Shown here: piece by piece, positions 20,917 through 30,536 of the stretch
Layout of the letters: each line of letters begins with the position of its first letter
Numbering within the stretch: position 1 is the first letter of the stretch
DNA from: a virus
Strand: one strand, 5' to 3'
Length of the DNA: 64,000 bases
IMG/VR virus record: IMGVR_UViG_3300029267_003532
Coordinates: 1-64,000 of that record
Notes under the pieces: generated by a model
What the model was told of the DNA's origin: nothing
The model's input: the letters and a program-made list of their open reading frames with translations, nothing else
Database searches by the model: none
Position numbers and translations under genes: made by a program

Positions 20917-21552
20917 ATGAAACTTCAAGTTGCACACATCAATCCATCCTCCTACGTCGACGGCCCCGGCCAGCGTGCCGTCCTCTACCTGGCCGGCTGC
21001 CCGATCCGCTGCCCTGGCTGCCAGTCCCCGTATCTCTGGGACGAGAATGCCGGCGCCGCAACGGACGTCGACCAAGTGGCCGCCTGCCTGCTCGACACCG
21101 GTCTGCCGATCACCATCTCCGGCGGCGAGCCCTTCGCCCAGGCACCCGCCGTGGCCGAGTTACTCGTCGATCTGCGCATCCAGCAGCCCGACCTGCACAT
21201 CATCGTCTACACCGGCTTTGTGGTCGAAGACATTCTCGACGCCATAGCTCCCGCGATGCCCGAAGCGTGGGTTATCCTCCACGCCGCCAACGTCCTCGTC
21301 GACGGTCCGTTCCAACCCGAGGACGACCACGACCAGGTGCAGTGGCGCGGCTCCAGTAACCAGCGTCCCATCGACCTGCGCGCGACGTGGGAGCGAGCCT
21401 GGCGTTCCCTGGCCCTACTGGACTGGGATGCGCAGACCCTGACGATCACCGCAGACGGCGACCTGCTCGGCGCCGCCGGCACGATGGACGACCTATTCGG
21501 ATCACCAGCCCTGGTCCCCACGCGTATGTGCGGCCAGGTCAGAACAATCTAG
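20917..21552 (+). CDS. Radical SAM protein, NrdG/activating-enzyme-like
   Basis: DGPGQRAVLYLAGCPIRCPGC, ISGGEPF, VYTGF, LVDGPF, WRGSSNQR; no NrdD in the window. Confidence 0.9.
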   Translation: MKLQVAHINPSSYVDGPGQRAVLYLAGCPIRCPGCQSPYLWDENAGAATDVDQVAACLLDTGLPITISGGEPFAQAPAVAELLVDLRIQQPDLHIIVYTGFVVEDILDAIAPAMPEAWVILHAANVLVDGPFQPEDDHDQVQWRGSSNQRPIDLRATWERAWRSLALLDWDAQTLTITADGDLLGAAGTMDDLFGSPALVPTRMCGQVRTI

Positions 21553-21620
21553 CTGTTTCTCCTCCTGTTGGGGGTGCCGGGGGTGGTGTGGCAGCCATTC
21601 CCGGCCCCTCGTATTTTGGC

Positions 21621-21650
21621 CCCTAATTTTGGGGCCGCTCATTTGTTATA
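21621..21650 (+). promoter_or_regulatory. Phage-specific promoter, copy 3
   Basis: CCCTAATTT-N12-TTTGTTATA. Confidence 0.75.
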
Positions 21651-21709
21651 GATATAGATTGTGAACCTAATCTGAATGAGCAACCGAACAGGCCAAACAG
21701 GAGAACAAC

Positions 21710-23008
21710 GTGAGCGTCAAAATCGAGGACAACCCGATGGACACAGCCCAAGTTATTGCCGAAGCCAAGAGCATTATCAACCAGCGCCGCCGCGAGGCCG
21801 CCGAGCGGATGGGGGTGGACGAAAGCAAGGTCCAAACGCACCGCATCGAGCTACGTCGGCTCCGCGAGGCCGGTCTCCTGATTGACCTCGACATCCACGG
21901 CGTCTCGATGTTCAGCGTTCGCACGACCTACGCAGAGCTGGGCATCGGCGCAGAGGACGTCCGTGCCAAGCGGATGCGGGCAGGTACCAAGGACCTCTTT
22001 CCAGAATACAGCAAAAAGCTGCGCTCCCTCGAGGGCCGCGCGCGCCAGAACCTCGCCAAGCATTCACACTCGATCCCGGCCTTCGGCCAGTACCGGTGGC
22101 TTCCGTGGACAGCTTACCAGGCTTACTCGGACAAACACACCCAGATACTCGCCGAGCTCGATGCGACCAAGGCGGAATTGCTCGCCAAGTACGACGAGTT
22201 GCGCGAGGAAAACCGCGCCTACTTTGAGCAGGTCGCCCTGCGCGCCTGGCAGGACCTGCGCGCCGGATTCTCATATCCGGACAGCGGCATGATCGTTACC
22301 ACCGATCATACCGAGTTTGGCCCCGGCGAAGAGGGCAAGTTCGTCGAATACGTGGTTCAAAAAGTCCTTGGCCGGATGCCTCTCCCGGACGAAATCCGCG
22401 ACGGCGTGCGCATCGACTACAAGACCTCGATTCTCTACTCCGAGGCCGAGATCGCCGCCGACCAGTCCGCGCTCGAACAGGCTGAGGCCGAGTACGCGCA
22501 GGCCCGGTTTCAGCACGCGCAAGCCGAACAGGCTGCCTTCGACGTCCACCTCCAAGAGCGCGAGGCCGAGGGCCAAGTCCAAGCTCGCATCGCTGCCTAT
22601 CGCCGGGCCGAGCTCGAGCACGCGCGCCAACAGCTCGCCGAGATGGGCAGCCCCATCCAGGACGCCCTCGACGGCCTGCGTGCCAACTTGTACGACGCTG
22701 TACGCACGCTGCTGGCCGGCCTGCGCAAGAACACCACGTTTCGCGGCAAAGCCGGCTCCAAGGCCGCCGACCTGTATGCGTACTGGCACAAGTTGAACGG
22801 GGGACTGCTCCACGATGCCGACTTGGAGCAAGCCCTGGCCGCCTTGGACGGCGAGATGAAGTCCTACCAGGTCGCCGACAAAGACGCCCGGCAGACGCAG
22901 ATCGGCGACATCGAGACCCAACTCGCCGAGATCGCCGCCCTGACCGCCGAATCCGCGCGCAAGATTCGCAGCGAGTCGGGCAGCAGAGCTTCGGTCCTGG
23001 AATTGTAG
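21710..23008 (+). CDS. DUF3150-like coiled-coil protein
   Basis: LLIDLDIHG...GTKDLFP...ARQNL...FGQYRWLP pattern; ends SRASVLEL. Confidence 0.6.
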   Translation: MSVKIEDNPMDTAQVIAEAKSIINQRRREAAERMGVDESKVQTHRIELRRLREAGLLIDLDIHGVSMFSVRTTYAELGIGAEDVRAKRMRAGTKDLFPEYSKKLRSLEGRARQNLAKHSHSIPAFGQYRWLPWTAYQAYSDKHTQILAELDATKAELLAKYDELREENRAYFEQVALRAWQDLRAGFSYPDSGMIVTTDHTEFGPGEEGKFVEYVVQKVLGRMPLPDEIRDGVRIDYKTSILYSEAEIAADQSALEQAEAEYAQARFQHAQAEQAAFDVHLQEREAEGQVQARIAAYRRAELEHARQQLAEMGSPIQDALDGLRANLYDAVRTLLAGLRKNTTFRGKAGSKAADLYAYWHKLNGGLLHDADLEQALAALDGEMKSYQVADKDARQTQIGDIETQLAEIAALTAESARKIRSESGSRASVLEL

Positions 23009-23010
23009 CG

Positions 23011-23331
23011 ATGATGATCGTATTACGCAACACGACCAGCCGCAAGGACGCGGTGTACATCATTGAGGTGGACGAGGACAACCAAAAGGTGGCCGGTTGG
23101 TGGGGGCGCTGGGACACGTACCAAGCCCACGGCCTGGCTGGCCTGCGCAGTCAGATGAAATGGGACGGGCCATCCTATCAGAACGCGGCGGACAAGCTGC
23201 TGCGCCAAAAGCTAGAAAAAGGATATGTCCCCGTCGATCAACTGCCGGCATCTGTGTCGACGCCCGCGGCGCCCGATCCTAACCCGCCATCGCCCCGCCC
23301 GCGTTCACGGGCGGCAATGCTGGAGCTATAG
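23011..23331 (+). CDS. WGR-domain protein
   Basis: WWGR motif and KLEKGY; Pro-rich linker; ends SRAAMLEL. Confidence 0.7.
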   Translation: MMIVLRNTTSRKDAVYIIEVDEDNQKVAGWWGRWDTYQAHGLAGLRSQMKWDGPSYQNAADKLLRQKLEKGYVPVDQLPASVSTPAAPDPNPPSPRPRSRAAMLEL

Positions 23332-23877
23332 ATGTCAAACCTGGTACAGCTTGATTTCCTGACAATGATCCACTTGCCTCCTGTATGGACAGCGCCAATT
23401 CCCAGTGGATACGGACATTGGTGCTGTCCTCATTGTCACGATGCCGCCAGGGGATTTGAAGCCCCTTTATCGTTCCCTGCCACAAACAATCGCCAAATAG
23501 GTCAGTGCCGAACCTGTAACTATGAACATCACTTCAGCCTGCTTTATGGTCAAACTCCAAACGGGTATCCTGAGACGCGCATGGATTTAGAGCAGGCCCA
23601 TATCGCAGCTCACATTCGAACCGGGTTCCCCAAGATTTGCCCGGCTGGTCACGCGAATCCCGTTTGTATGGCAAATTGTGAGTCGTGTCCGCACCATCAA
23701 GCTGACGCGCGCTTGCACTGGCGCTGTAACCATCCGGCTTATCAAAAAGCGATTGGTGTACATTGGTGTCTAGGTTGTGGTATGGAACTTGGCCCTTGGG
23801 CAGAGGCTCATAATTGGCATTACTGCGGTGGGCCAACCAACCAATGCATGAGAGATTGGGAGATAACAAATGGATGA
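23332..23877 (+). CDS. Cys/His-rich multi-zinc-finger hypothetical protein
   Basis: Several CxxC motifs; lower GC than neighbours. Confidence 0.5.
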   Translation: MSNLVQLDFLTMIHLPPVWTAPIPSGYGHWCCPHCHDAARGFEAPLSFPATNNRQIGQCRTCNYEHHFSLLYGQTPNGYPETRMDLEQAHIAAHIRTGFPKICPAGHANPVCMANCESCPHHQADARLHWRCNHPAYQKAIGVHWCLGCGMELGPWAEAHNWHYCGGPTNQCMRDWEITNG

Positions 23878-24070
23878 ACGCACTCGCAACCGATTTGCCG
23901 CCAAGTTTGGTCTGCCTGCTGGACAGGTCCGAACGTTCGACGCGTTGACCGCGCACGAAAAAGAGGACGTGCGCCGCTACTACTCCCTCTACAATGCACG
24001 ACACTATGTCTACGCCATCAAGCGCGCTGGCGGATTGGTCGTGAAACGGTTCCGGCTCAATACCGCTTAG
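23870..24070 (+). CDS. Hypothetical protein
   Basis: GGAG RBS. Confidence 0.55.
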   Translation: MDERTRNRFAAKFGLPAGQVRTFDALTAHEKEDVRRYYSLYNARHYVYAIKRAGGLVVKRFRLNTA

Positions 24071-24089
24071 GATCATAATCCAAATCTAT

Positions 24090-24119
24090 CCCTAATTTCT
24101 AGCCTTCCCGTTTGTTATA
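24090..24119 (+). promoter_or_regulatory. Phage-specific promoter, copy 4
   Basis: CCCTAATTT-N12-TTTGTTATA. Confidence 0.75.
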
Positions 24120-24146
24120 TAGGTACAACTACAGGAGGGACAAACG

Positions 24147-25721
24147 ATGAACGTGAACAAACTGACCGCCATTCAACAAGCTGACGTCTTTATCCGCGCT
24201 CGCTACCCTGGGCTCTTTATCCGCTCGCAAGAGGAAGCGCGGGTCGAATCGGCCATTCGCGGCCTACTCGCGACCGGCAAGCACGCCCACAAGGAGGTCT
24301 TGACCTGGACCATCAGCCGGGGTGTGCGCCTGGCCGACGCGCCGGCAGAGGAATACGGGCCAACCGATCCGATCAGCGCCCTGCAGTGGTTCGCCGGTTA
24401 TGGCGTCACCGAGGAAAAGCCCGCCGGCACACCGGCGGTCGCCATCTTCAAGGACCTCGATCCCTATTTCCAAGACCCCCGCGTTGTTCGCGCTCTGCGC
24501 GACCTGATCGCCGACATCACCAGCACCCAGCGCACGCTGATCGTCATTTCCCCAACACCCAACGTGCCCGAATCCTGCAAGCGCCAGGTTGCCATGATCG
24601 ACTGGGCGCTTCCCACGGTCGACGAGCTGGCCGGCATGCTGGGCGACTTTATCGCCGACCTGCCTGACCGCGTACAATGCGACCTGAACGGCGACAAGGA
24701 GCAGGTTGCCAAGGCACTCTGCGGCCTCACCTGGTTTCAGGCCCAGTCGGTACTCGCCACCGCCGTGATTGCCACCGGCAAGCTGGACGGGGCTGCAATC
24801 GAGTTCATCATTTCGGAAAAAGCGCGCCTTGTCCGTGAATCCGGGCTCCTCGAGTTCTACCTGCCCGACAACCTGCCCGACATCGGCGGCCTGGATGAAC
24901 TCAAAACCTACATCTCGCGTAGGCGCCGCTCTTTCACGGACAAGGCCCGCGACTATGGCGTACCCACGCCCAAGGGCTTGCTCCTTGTCGGCGTGCCCGG
25001 CTGCGGCAAATCGCTGGCCTGCAAGTCACTCTCCAAGCTCTGGCGGCTGCCCCTGGTCCGCCTCGACGTCGGCGCGCTAATGGGCTCCCTGGTCGGCCAG
25101 TCAGAGGCCAACCTCCGCCAGGCGCTGCAAGTCGCCGAGTCATCCAGCCCCTGTATCCTCTGGCTGGACGAGATTGAAAAGGGCCTCGCCGGCGTCAAGT
25201 CGAGTGGGCAAACCGATGGCGGGACCACCGCCCGCGTTTTTGGCGCGCTGCTCACCTGGCTCCAGGAAAAGACCGCGCCGGTTTACATGGTCGCAACCAG
25301 CAACGACATCAGCGCGCTGCCGGCAGAGCTGCTGCGCGCCGGACGTTTCGACGAGACCTTTTTCGTAGACCTGCCCAACACGCAGGAACGCCGAGAGATT
25401 TGGACCATCCACGTCGCCAAAGCCGGCCGCAATCCGGCCAACTTTGACCTCGAGGCCTTGGTCCAGGCCAGCGACGGCTATACAGGTGCAGAGATCGAAG
25501 CCGCAGTCGGCGACGCTTTGATCGCCGGTTTTGACCAGGATCGCGAGATCACTACCGGCGACCTGGTCACAGCCATTGCGGGCCGCGTGCCCCTGACCGA
25601 GACGATGGACACGCAGATCAACGCCCTGCGCAAATGGGCTGCCCGGCGCGCCAAGCCGGCCAGCAGCGCCCAAGCCGGCCAGGCCGAGTCCAAGAGCCGC
25701 GCCGCGACACTCGACTTATAG
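24147..25721 (+). CDS. Ycf46-like AAA+ ATPase (SpoVK/Ycf46/Vps4 family)
   Basis: IRARYP...EEAR N-domain, DIGGLDELK, GVPGCGKS, LWLDEIEKG, ELLRAGRFDE, LRKWA; ends SRAATLDL. Confidence 0.92.
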   Translation: MNVNKLTAIQQADVFIRARYPGLFIRSQEEARVESAIRGLLATGKHAHKEVLTWTISRGVRLADAPAEEYGPTDPISALQWFAGYGVTEEKPAGTPAVAIFKDLDPYFQDPRVVRALRDLIADITSTQRTLIVISPTPNVPESCKRQVAMIDWALPTVDELAGMLGDFIADLPDRVQCDLNGDKEQVAKALCGLTWFQAQSVLATAVIATGKLDGAAIEFIISEKARLVRESGLLEFYLPDNLPDIGGLDELKTYISRRRRSFTDKARDYGVPTPKGLLLVGVPGCGKSLACKSLSKLWRLPLVRLDVGALMGSLVGQSEANLRQALQVAESSSPCILWLDEIEKGLAGVKSSGQTDGGTTARVFGALLTWLQEKTAPVYMVATSNDISALPAELLRAGRFDETFFVDLPNTQERREIWTIHVAKAGRNPANFDLEALVQASDGYTGAEIEAAVGDALIAGFDQDREITTGDLVTAIAGRVPLTETMDTQINALRKWAARRAKPASSAQAGQAESKSRAATLDL

Positions 25722-25725
25722 AAAT

Positions 25726-25768
25726 CCCTAATTTTTGGTCTGCCCATTTGTTATATGGGCAGACCAAA
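25726..25768 (+). promoter_or_regulatory. Phage-specific promoter, copy 5, embedded in a 14-bp inverted repeat
   Basis: CCCTAATTT-N12-TTTGTTATA; TTTGGTCTGCCCAT-TTGTTAT-ATGGGCAGACCAAA. Confidence 0.75.
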
Positions 25769-25782
25769 CCAAGGAGGATAAC

Positions 25783-26190
25783 GTGAGCAAATATCGGAAA
25801 CTCAAGACCAAATTCACCAGCCGCGTGCACCTGCGCGAGGCGCTCCAAGCCACCGGCTTGCCTTTCGAAGAGGCCCGGCCTGGTCAGGCCCTGACCCTCA
25901 ACGGATACGGCGGGCAGCGGCGCGAAGCGACCTTTGTAGTCCGCAAGCGGGCGCTGGGCGCACGATACGGCGACTTTGGCTGGCAGTGGGATCCCGCGAC
26001 CAAGGGTTTTACTCAGATTGAGGATGATCTCGACGCCGGCCATCTGCCCGTTCAGCAGAACCTGCAGGCCATCAAGCGCGAGTATGCCTACGCTGCGACC
26101 GTGACACAGGCGAGGGTAAAGGGCTACCAGATTCGTCGCATCGACCTGCCGTCAGGCGAGATTCAAATCCAGGTTACAGGGAGGATCTAA
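25783..26190 (+). CDS. Ycf35/DUF1257-like protein
   Basis: S-x-Y..LKTKF...LREAL...GYGGQ...DFGW...REYA...KGY pattern; follows the Ycf46-like ATPase. Confidence 0.8.
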   Translation: MSKYRKLKTKFTSRVHLREALQATGLPFEEARPGQALTLNGYGGQRREATFVVRKRALGARYGDFGWQWDPATKGFTQIEDDLDAGHLPVQQNLQAIKREYAYAATVTQARVKGYQIRRIDLPSGEIQIQVTGRI

Positions 26191-26411
26191 TGCAGGCATT
26201 CACATTGACGATCACCATCAGCGTTGACGGCGAGACCGTTGTGGGCGAGGTCTCTGGGATCAAAGGCAAGCGTTGCTCTGACATCGCGGCACTGCTCGAC
26301 AAAGTCGGCGACGAGACCGAACATCGGCACACTGCGGACTATGACGCAGTCGAGCCGGTTCAGATCAATGCCGGCATCGGCAGCACCTTGTCCTTGGATC
26401 GTAACGGATAG
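26190..26411 (+). CDS. DUF2997-like protein
   Basis: ITISVDG..V.GEVSGIKGKRCSD...TADY. Confidence 0.8.
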   Translation: MQAFTLTITISVDGETVVGEVSGIKGKRCSDIAALLDKVGDETEHRHTADYDAVEPVQINAGIGSTLSLDRNG

Positions 26412-30188: not shown

Positions 30189-30536
30189 ATGGCTACAAAA
30201 TGGCTGTGCAACACGTGTGGAGAGGTCACGTCTCATGGTGGAGCGTGTCCGGTCTGTGCATCGACTGATGTTGAGCCGCTCGACTCTGAGCGAGATGTTG
30301 TGCTCCGTCGCAAGCGCGATCTTGATGCAGGGCTATATCGCAAATATATCGTCTTTGATACGGACACAGAGGTCGAAACAGACGGCTTTTGCTTTGTGCT
30401 CAAGCCGGAGACAGATTCGGCCGCGTGGGATGCGTTGCAGGCATACGCGCTGTCGACCACGAATCCCCAGTTGGGTGCTGATCTGATGCGTTGGTTGAAT
30501 CAGAATCTTCGTTCGGTTGAAGTGATCGAATTTTAG
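30189..30536 (+). CDS. Zinc-ribbon hypothetical protein
   Basis: CNTC...CPVC; GLYRKY...FVLKPETD. Confidence 0.6.
   Translation: MATKWLCNTCGEVTSHGGACPVCASTDVEPLDSERDVVLRRKRDLDAGLYRKYIVFDTDTEVETDGFCFVLKPETDSAAWDALQAYALSTTNPQLGADLMRWLNQNLRSVEVIEF

Follow-up and report, generated by a model that had tools for sequence, protein, structure and literature searches.

A shared C-terminal tail in the Ycf46-type ATPase module of a phage, a candidate docking peptide

Given that three neighbouring genes of one phage encode proteins of different families with nearly the same last eight residues, we asked where this C-terminal tag comes from, how far it extends to other genomes and what it may do. The genes lie in IMG/VR virus record IMGVR_UViG_3300029267_003532, a single-contig virus of 79,955 bp with a CheckV completeness of 92%, of which positions 1 to 64,000 were analysed as one stretch (64,000 nucleotides, hereafter the window). 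They belong to a module built around an AAA+ ATPase of the Ycf46 type, which is itself one of the three tagged proteins. The explanation that we favour, with slightly better than even confidence, is that the tail may act as a short docking peptide, by which a p97-like machine would hold its cofactors or clients at a single site.

One tag at the end of three proteins

The tagged proteins and their tags, located by a scan of the open reading frames (ORFs), are as follows.

21710-23008, plus strand: divergent DUF3150-family protein of 432 residues, largely coiled coil, ending in SRASVLEL (iterated hidden Markov model (HMM) search; Atlas)
22982-23005, plus strand: tag 1, SRASVLEL, followed by a TAG stop (ORF scan)
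23011-23331, plus strand: WGR-like protein of 106 residues, made up of a 75-residue domain, a proline-rich linker and the tag SRAAMLEL (WGR, E 0.12)
23305-23328, plus strand: tag 2, SRAAMLEL, followed by a TAG stop (ORF scan)
24147-25721, plus strand: Ycf46-type AAA+ ATPase of 524 residues with a flexible tail ending in SRAATLDL (PF00004 and AAA_lid_3; phrog_8638)
25695-25718, plus strand: tag 3, SRAATLDL, followed by a TAG stop (ORF scan)

With one more residue, the three ends read ...GSRASVLEL, ...RSRAAMLEL and ...KSRAATLDL, and the pattern [ST]RA..L[DE]L terminates 3 of the 1228 stop-to-stop frames of at least 30 residues in the window, these three only. A six-frame scan of the whole 79,955-bp genome returned the same three ORF ends and no others, in agreement with an earlier reading made from the sequence alone, which had proposed a tag common to three neighbouring proteins; internal occurrences of the pattern were absent from every frame of the window and of the genome. 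Under the genome's own amino-acid composition, the chance of the motif per C-terminus is 9e-7, with about 1e-4 occurrences expected in 120 genes. The probability of three or more tagged ends is 2e-13, a figure that is indicative only, since the motif was defined after being seen. The sequence-only reading had also placed the likeness at the level of protein rather than DNA, and this was borne out: the tag codons are identical at 11-14 of 24 nucleotides and at 1-2 of 8 third positions. Because the codons differ, the match is protein-level conservation and not repeated DNA, and the low codon identity together with the tiny motif expectation ruled out both chance and DNA duplication as the origin of the tag. 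The TAG stop that ends all three tagged genes was discarded as a notable feature, given that TAG ends 33 of the 81 long ORFs.

In the present phage, only three proteins bear the tag, all of them members of the module itself. Two weaker ends were seen elsewhere. A look-alike ORF outside the window (72181-72456, ...RRVTSLDL) is probably spurious, because it runs antisense to long minus-strand genes. A plus-strand ORF of 115 residues (30189-30536), which starts with CxxC...CxxC and has the weaker tag-like end ...LRSVEVIEF, may be a fourth client.

The tail in ATPases, partner proteins and other phages

The ATPase matches PF00004 (E 6e-28), AAA_lid_3 (PF17862, E 2e-6) and phrog_8638 (E 2e-138), and its homologues, cyanobacteria included, are 41-47% identical across 95-100% of the length. 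AAA and lid domains, full-length Ycf46 homology and adjoining DUF1257 and DUF2997 genes place it in the classic clade of Ycf46-type ATPases. Its ATPase domain is nearest by sequence to the D2 domain of p97/Cdc48 (PDB sequence matches, E 2e-48), and no ATPase family of Pfam matched the first half of the protein. An AlphaFold (AF2) model built from 96 homologues, with a predicted local distance difference test (pLDDT) score of 88, superposes over its whole length on the D1-D2 tandem of p97, NVL, Rix7 and AFG2 (Foldseek, about 570 columns, E 6e-23, TMq 0.66). The modelled protein looks like a p97-type double module with an active D2 and without a separate substrate-binding N domain, and since the whole length aligns with the tandem and no separate N domain is present, it probably needs adaptors.

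Tails were surveyed in the top 120 homologues of a database search and in the ATPases of 160 loci (80 cellular and 80 viral); ORFs in the compared loci were called mechanically. Many of these proteins have the C-terminus R-x-[ILM]-[DE]-[LFIV]. The ends seen are SRAA[TRG]LDL in close relatives from phages, GRRLEL, ERKIEL or TRKLEL in many bacterial and archaeal proteins, EYQR[ML]EF in cyanobacterial Ycf46, and GRALDL or RAIDI in many phages. A basic residue followed by x(0-3)-hydrophobic-[DE]-hydrophobic forms the exact end of 109 of 272 distinct sequences of bacterial, archaeal and phage origin (about 40%), and stands before one extra residue in 12, two in 4 and three in 1; the internal background of this motif is 0.57% per position. 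Other ATPase clades end, for example, in DDDRIVPTEAA or in acidic EDDL, or stop straight after the last helix. On this distribution, the tail is an ancient, ancestral end of the Ycf46-type ATPase family that is not peculiar to this phage. Fusions of the ATPase with DUF1257 were also sought among the longer ATPase forms and none was found; the sole longer form, a homologue of 1492 residues (P0155), carries an intein with a LAGLIDADG endonuclease (PF14890, PF14528).

The two other tagged families had been named DUF3150-like and WGR from the sequence alone, and both names hold as distant relationships, the second by a weak match. The 432-residue protein has no direct Pfam match even at E 10 and falls below the cut-off of PF11348, and a single-protein scan of viral contigs with it returned no match. 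An iterated HMM ties it to 15 loci, the distant members of which match PF11348 at 44-86 bits (E 1e-11 to 4e-24; loci L002, L004, L006, L012, L110, L117 and L156), and Atlas placed it with DUF3150 clusters (feature score 0.93, TM 0.58/0.73). By transitive homology, it is therefore classed as a divergent DUF3150 relative. Its long homologues end in SRASMLEL (L001), TRAAMLEL (L096), TRAGMIEV (L094) and TRASAIEF (L049), giving the consensus [ST]RA[AGS]x[LI]E[LVF], and the remoter DUF3150 proteins have GRVIDIE, SRVMDVE or KKERVEV at this place.

The 106-residue protein reaches 13 bits against WGR (PF05406, E 0.12, model positions 8-76 of 79), below the cut-off of 22 bits. WGR is the only recurrent Pfam family among its relatives (5 of 31 members), and one weak phmmer match, P0154, is a true WGR protein at E 1e-51, so that the protein is labelled, weakly, as WGR-like only. 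An exhaustive search with it gave 33 cluster representatives including the query; of the 32 homologues, at least 22 have the C-terminus [ST]RAAxLE[LFWIV], despite preceding linkers that cannot be aligned.

The motif is thereby kept in homologues of all three families and occurs together on the same three genes in other phages, so that the outcome named in the sequence-only reading as refuting it, homologues without the motif or without its co-occurrence, did not arise. The gene order DUF3150, WGR-like, ATPase recurs with all three proteins tagged in two other phage contigs: in L192 the ends are RASVLEL, AGVLDL with a single added residue, and LSVLEL, and the DUF1257 and DUF2997 genes come next; in L193 the ends are RAAALEF, RAAALEL and RASTLDL. 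A relative with 84% identity (L001) lacks the WGR-like gene and keeps the other two tags. Apart from the ATPase itself, viral loci contain 43 tagged ORFs on its strand and 3 on the opposite one; cellular loci contain 5 and 2, respectively. Three unrelated ORFs of one locus (L011) end in KRIVE[LV]. In a phage record of 350,866 bp (G001, 33% GC, tiled), 38 plus-strand ORFs end in x-R-[F]-[ED]-[I]-L-D-[LI], a heptad that matches the one in the present phage; they encode 55-371 residues (median 116) and are mostly ORFans, 4 of the 38 having any Pfam match. On these comparisons, the tag is a real, selected and portable feature at the protein level.

Several further observations concern the 350,866-bp phage. 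Its tagged ORFs often stand in tandem runs (e.g. L179:8412-16502), and isoleucine is common at position -10. AKDLDL is the end of its ATPase, and 127 kb separate the ATPase from DUF2997, which adjoins a 390-residue protein that, judged by eye, resembles the delta subunit of a clamp loader.

Cultured phages also carry the tail. In Mycobacteriophage Corndog (cluster O; L205, 52415-65980), gp96 belongs to the same ATPase family and ends in ...KVRVLDL, gp95 (266 residues) has ALDF near its end (...YALDFEEVV), and gp93 has 113 residues (MPCDT...HSHDGGQTWH). This three-gene version of the module was found in about 20 IMG/VR loci. It differs from the module of the present phage in that no DUF1257, DUF3150 or WGR protein was detected there and partner families of 266 and 113 residues (the latter with HSHDGG) occur instead. 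Rhodobacter phage RcTiptonus is a cultured carrier with a basic tail dialect. ParB-like and Ku-like genes lie near the Corndog module.

The DUF1257/DUF2997 pair and the possible role of the tail

Five untagged genes complete the module.

20917-21552, plus strand: NrdG-like radical S-adenosylmethionine (SAM) protein of 211 residues (Pfam Fer4_12, E 4e-28; phrog_626, E 2e-28)
23332-23877, plus strand: Cys/His-rich protein of 181 residues, without family match (homologue at the same place in locus L001)
23870-24070, plus strand: small protein of 66 residues, without family match (homologue in locus L001)
25735-26190, plus strand: DUF1257 (Ycf35-like) protein (PF06868, E 3e-9)
26190-26411, plus strand: DUF2997 protein of 73 residues with invariant Gly and Cys (PF11211, E 1e-5; alignment)

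DUF1257 and DUF2997 lie directly downstream of the ATPase, an order that is repeated in many loci. Among cellular loci with enough flanking sequence, DUF1257 adjoins 30 of the 31 tailed ATPases as against 6 of the 21 tail-less ones (Fisher p 1.6e-7), and several of the six tail-less ATPases beside DUF1257 carry the motif with a few extra residues. The split between tailed and tail-less forms recurs within phyla, with Verrucomicrobiota and Myxococcota each holding both states. Four of five whole genomes with a tail-less ATPase are without both DUF1257 and DUF2997, and DUF2997 is present in all five cyanobacteria with a tailed Ycf46 (5/5). A Caldilineaceae genome (L204) with a tail-less Ycf46-like ATPase has a DUF1257-DUF2997 pair on another contig, with no adjoining ATPase. 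Natural single-chain fusions of the two families (L095:9185-9763 and L103:10355-10924) suggest that DUF1257 and DUF2997 act together. Because the tail co-occurs with both families and such fusions exist, the pair is our best candidate for the receptor of the tail, and the ATPase ring itself is the second.

Among solved structures, DUF1257 has no evident relative. The DUF1257 part of the L001 orthologue was modelled with pLDDT 91-98; Foldseek returned nothing for this fold at E 0.001 or better, and VIA gave Z 5-6 to KA1, AMPK C-terminal domain and TBP-like two-layer folds, below the meaningful level. DUF2997 proteins are about 65 residues long; Gly and Cys are invariant in them (G-x-x-G-x-x-C), T-x-EYY is a frequent motif, and they look like small modified or redox-active proteins.

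In the mechanism that we propose, the ATPase would be a p97-like tandem-domain unfoldase, and the tail a docking (address) peptide of the general form R-(small or hydrophobic)-x-hydrophobic-L-[DE]-L, which follows a flexible linker and stands at the C-terminus or 1-2 residues before it. Through the tail, the ATPase, the DUF3150-like protein and the WGR-like protein would all bind the same receptor surface in the module, and the tagged proteins would assemble on the motor or pass to it as cofactors or clients. From the motif, its conservation, its position at the end, its spread and its co-occurrence with DUF1257 and DUF2997, we infer binding by the tail, the binding partner and the events downstream. 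The sequence-only reading had allowed for either a docking peptide or a degron that brings three proteins to one hub; docking fits best, and neither the degron nor the host-takeover system suggested with it found direct support.

Several results weigh against this docking mechanism. The models do not single out the one hub that had been supposed. AF2 leaves the tail disordered when the ATPase is modelled alone (pLDDT 47-50), and docking in cis on the ATPase was rejected on this model from 96 sequences. L001 offers a natural construct in which reading TAG as Q continues the tail in frame through a 21-residue spacer into DUF1257; here AF2 draws the tail as a helix at pLDDT 66-68, which speaks neither for nor against docking on DUF1257. 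A receptor site inside the ATPase was sought by comparing tailed with tail-less homologues, and P111 was the only column to tell the two sets apart. A complete, tag-rich phage of 548 kb has DUF2997 and no PF06868 match. No DUF1257 was detected in the Corndog-like group, although its ATPase and its partner of about 270 residues are tailed, and the partners of this group could be linked neither to DUF3150 nor, for the small Cys/His protein, to DUF2997 (hhalign probabilities 0.5% and 3%). Finally, across 31 diverse loci, sharing a genome does not make the tails of ATPase and partner significantly more similar (permutation p 0.17), and genome-specific tag codes were rejected on this result. Co-variation of the C-termini genome by genome, as first envisaged, is thereby confined to the nearest clade, where the last tail residues of DUF3150 and ATPase agree in 5/5 genomes (L/L, L/L, L/L, V/V and F/F), an agreement that speaks for docking. 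Overall, the tag is a single general motif that varies by local dialect, most strongly in large phages with their many clients.

Of the alternatives, a degron survives best, and we regard it as unlikely. On this view, the phage p97-like unfoldase would draw tagged proteins into its pore, or a host AAA+ protease would recognise them, and their unfolding or degradation would be timed. In its favour, the nearest relatives of the ATPase are unfoldases that thread their substrates, degrons usually take the form of flexible terminal peptides, and the tags of large phages sit on dozens of small ORFans, early-type proteins suited to timed removal. However, the ATPase is itself tagged, also in cellular genomes without tagged neighbours (5 plus-strand against 2 minus-strand matches), the module contains no peptidase, and the tail tracks DUF1257/DUF2997 and not a protease. 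Moreover, the residue at -2 is acidic in all three tags and in the family consensus, unlike the LAA ends of the ssrA type, which sets the tags apart from ssrA-like degrons and ClpX C-motifs.

The tail may otherwise mimic that of the host ATPase and so hijack a host Ycf35/DUF2997, chaperone or ring-shaped factor, which would suit both the same tail on cellular Ycf46-type ATPases and the tails kept by some complete phages without detectable DUF1257. We consider such docking on the host quite improbable, as this phage, like many, has DUF1257 and DUF2997 genes of its own immediately behind the ATPase gene, and the nearest cellular ATPase homologues sampled come mostly from tail-less clades.

A third alternative involves the radical SAM gene, which had been taken for an orphan. 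The encoded protein matches PF13353 (Fer4_12) at E 4e-28 and phrog_626, and NrdD (PF13597) is absent from the 92%-complete genome. HMM searches found homologues in 24 of 172 loci, directly upstream of the ATPase in loci of Planctomycetota and Verrucomicrobiota and also in many phages. Since the genome has no NrdD and the gene travels with the ATPase module, it is classed by its genomic context as a recurrent module member and is not filed as NrdG. That the tail is the recognition or modification site of this enzyme would agree with its recurrence beside the ATPase, with the tailed ATPase of every cellular module that has a same-strand copy, and with the missing NrdD substrate; yet the enzyme occurs in those 24 loci only, and cyanobacteria and Corndog-like phages have tails without such an enzyme nearby, which makes this very improbable. 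Our guess is that DUF2997, because of its invariant Gly and Cys, is a more obvious target of the enzyme than the tail.

Shared terminal peptides load the cargo of encapsulins, whose shells are related to HK97-type phage capsids, but a corresponding role of the tail, as a signal for packaging into the phage capsid, is scarcely credible for a motif that is kept on ATPases of bacteria and archaea without a capsid. In Corndog, moreover, mass spectrometry of infected cells revealed the tailed ATPase gp96, whereas that of purified virions did not (PMC4351075).

Returning to the docking peptide, we extend it tentatively, and with less than even confidence, to a portable address code of a p97-like machine formed by the Ycf46 ATPase and DUF1257/DUF2997, in which cells would tag the motor only and phages would copy the tail onto other proteins for assembly, remodelling or timed removal.

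Related systems and gene layout

The closest known counterpart is the cyanobacterial and plastid Ycf46-Ycf35-DUF2997 set, which has the same ATPase family and tandem fold, DUF1257 and DUF2997 downstream and the same type of tail (EYQR[ML]EF in cyanobacteria). The phage module adds DUF3150-like, WGR-like, Cys-rich and radical SAM genes, and in it two further proteins are tailed. In p97, a flexible C-terminal tail recruits cofactors; PUB and PUL domains bind this tail, and VIM and VBM motifs bind the N domain. The phage module resembles the p97/Cdc48 system with its VIM and VBM motifs in the D1-D2 fold and in an Arg/Ala-containing tag segment that AF2 draws as a helix, and differs in that its ATPase has no N domain and the motif is another one; Pfam detected no PUB or PUL domain in the module proteins. 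The HbYX/GQYL tails of PAN/Rpt and archaeal Cdc48 and of mycobacterial Mpa and Bpa are C-terminal residues common to an AAA+ unfoldase and unrelated proteins that use the same site. The likeness to the phage tails is one of logic only, given that the latter have no penultimate Tyr, have an acidic residue at -2 and tolerate 1-3 extra residues; no 20S-type ring was found encoded in the module. The hydrophobic-x-hydrophobic pattern fits class II PDZ ligands, whereas the tolerated extra residues argue against a strict carboxylate anchor, and no PDZ domain was detected in the module with Pfam. Literature on DUF2997, DUF1257, Ycf46, DUF3150 and C-terminal motifs of jumbo phages yielded no description of the tail, no function for the cellular gene set and no mechanism for the module, and neither tail nor mechanism is described in a survey of jumbo phages (PMC7824862).

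Conservation of Ycf46, Ycf35 and DUF2997 extends from cyanobacteria and plastids to many bacteria, archaea and phages, and a conserved, portable terminal peptide is an experimental handle that can serve as bait for receptor and clients. Should the tag route proteins to a p97-like motor, it would constitute a virus-encoded protein-targeting system whose code marks up to dozens of proteins, mostly ORFans. It would then provide a common pathway for many 'hypothetical' phage genes and a handle on the function of plastid and cyanobacterial ycf46 and ycf35. Because cultured phages such as Mycobacteriophage Corndog carry the system, the idea is directly testable.

Some details of the layout remain to be added. 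The plus strand from about 7 to 33 kb holds early and replication genes, and structural genes occupy the minus strand beyond. The true start of the DUF1257 gene is likely the GTG at 25783, because the alignment of homologues begins at MSKYRKL. A terminator-like hairpin with a T run lies at 21617-21637, between the radical SAM gene and the DUF3150-like gene, and the module may therefore comprise more than one transcription unit. Positions 1-145, at the start of the record, recur exactly as a direct repeat at 75605-75749, outside the window; overlapping assembly ends, a terminal repeat or an attachment repeat may account for it.

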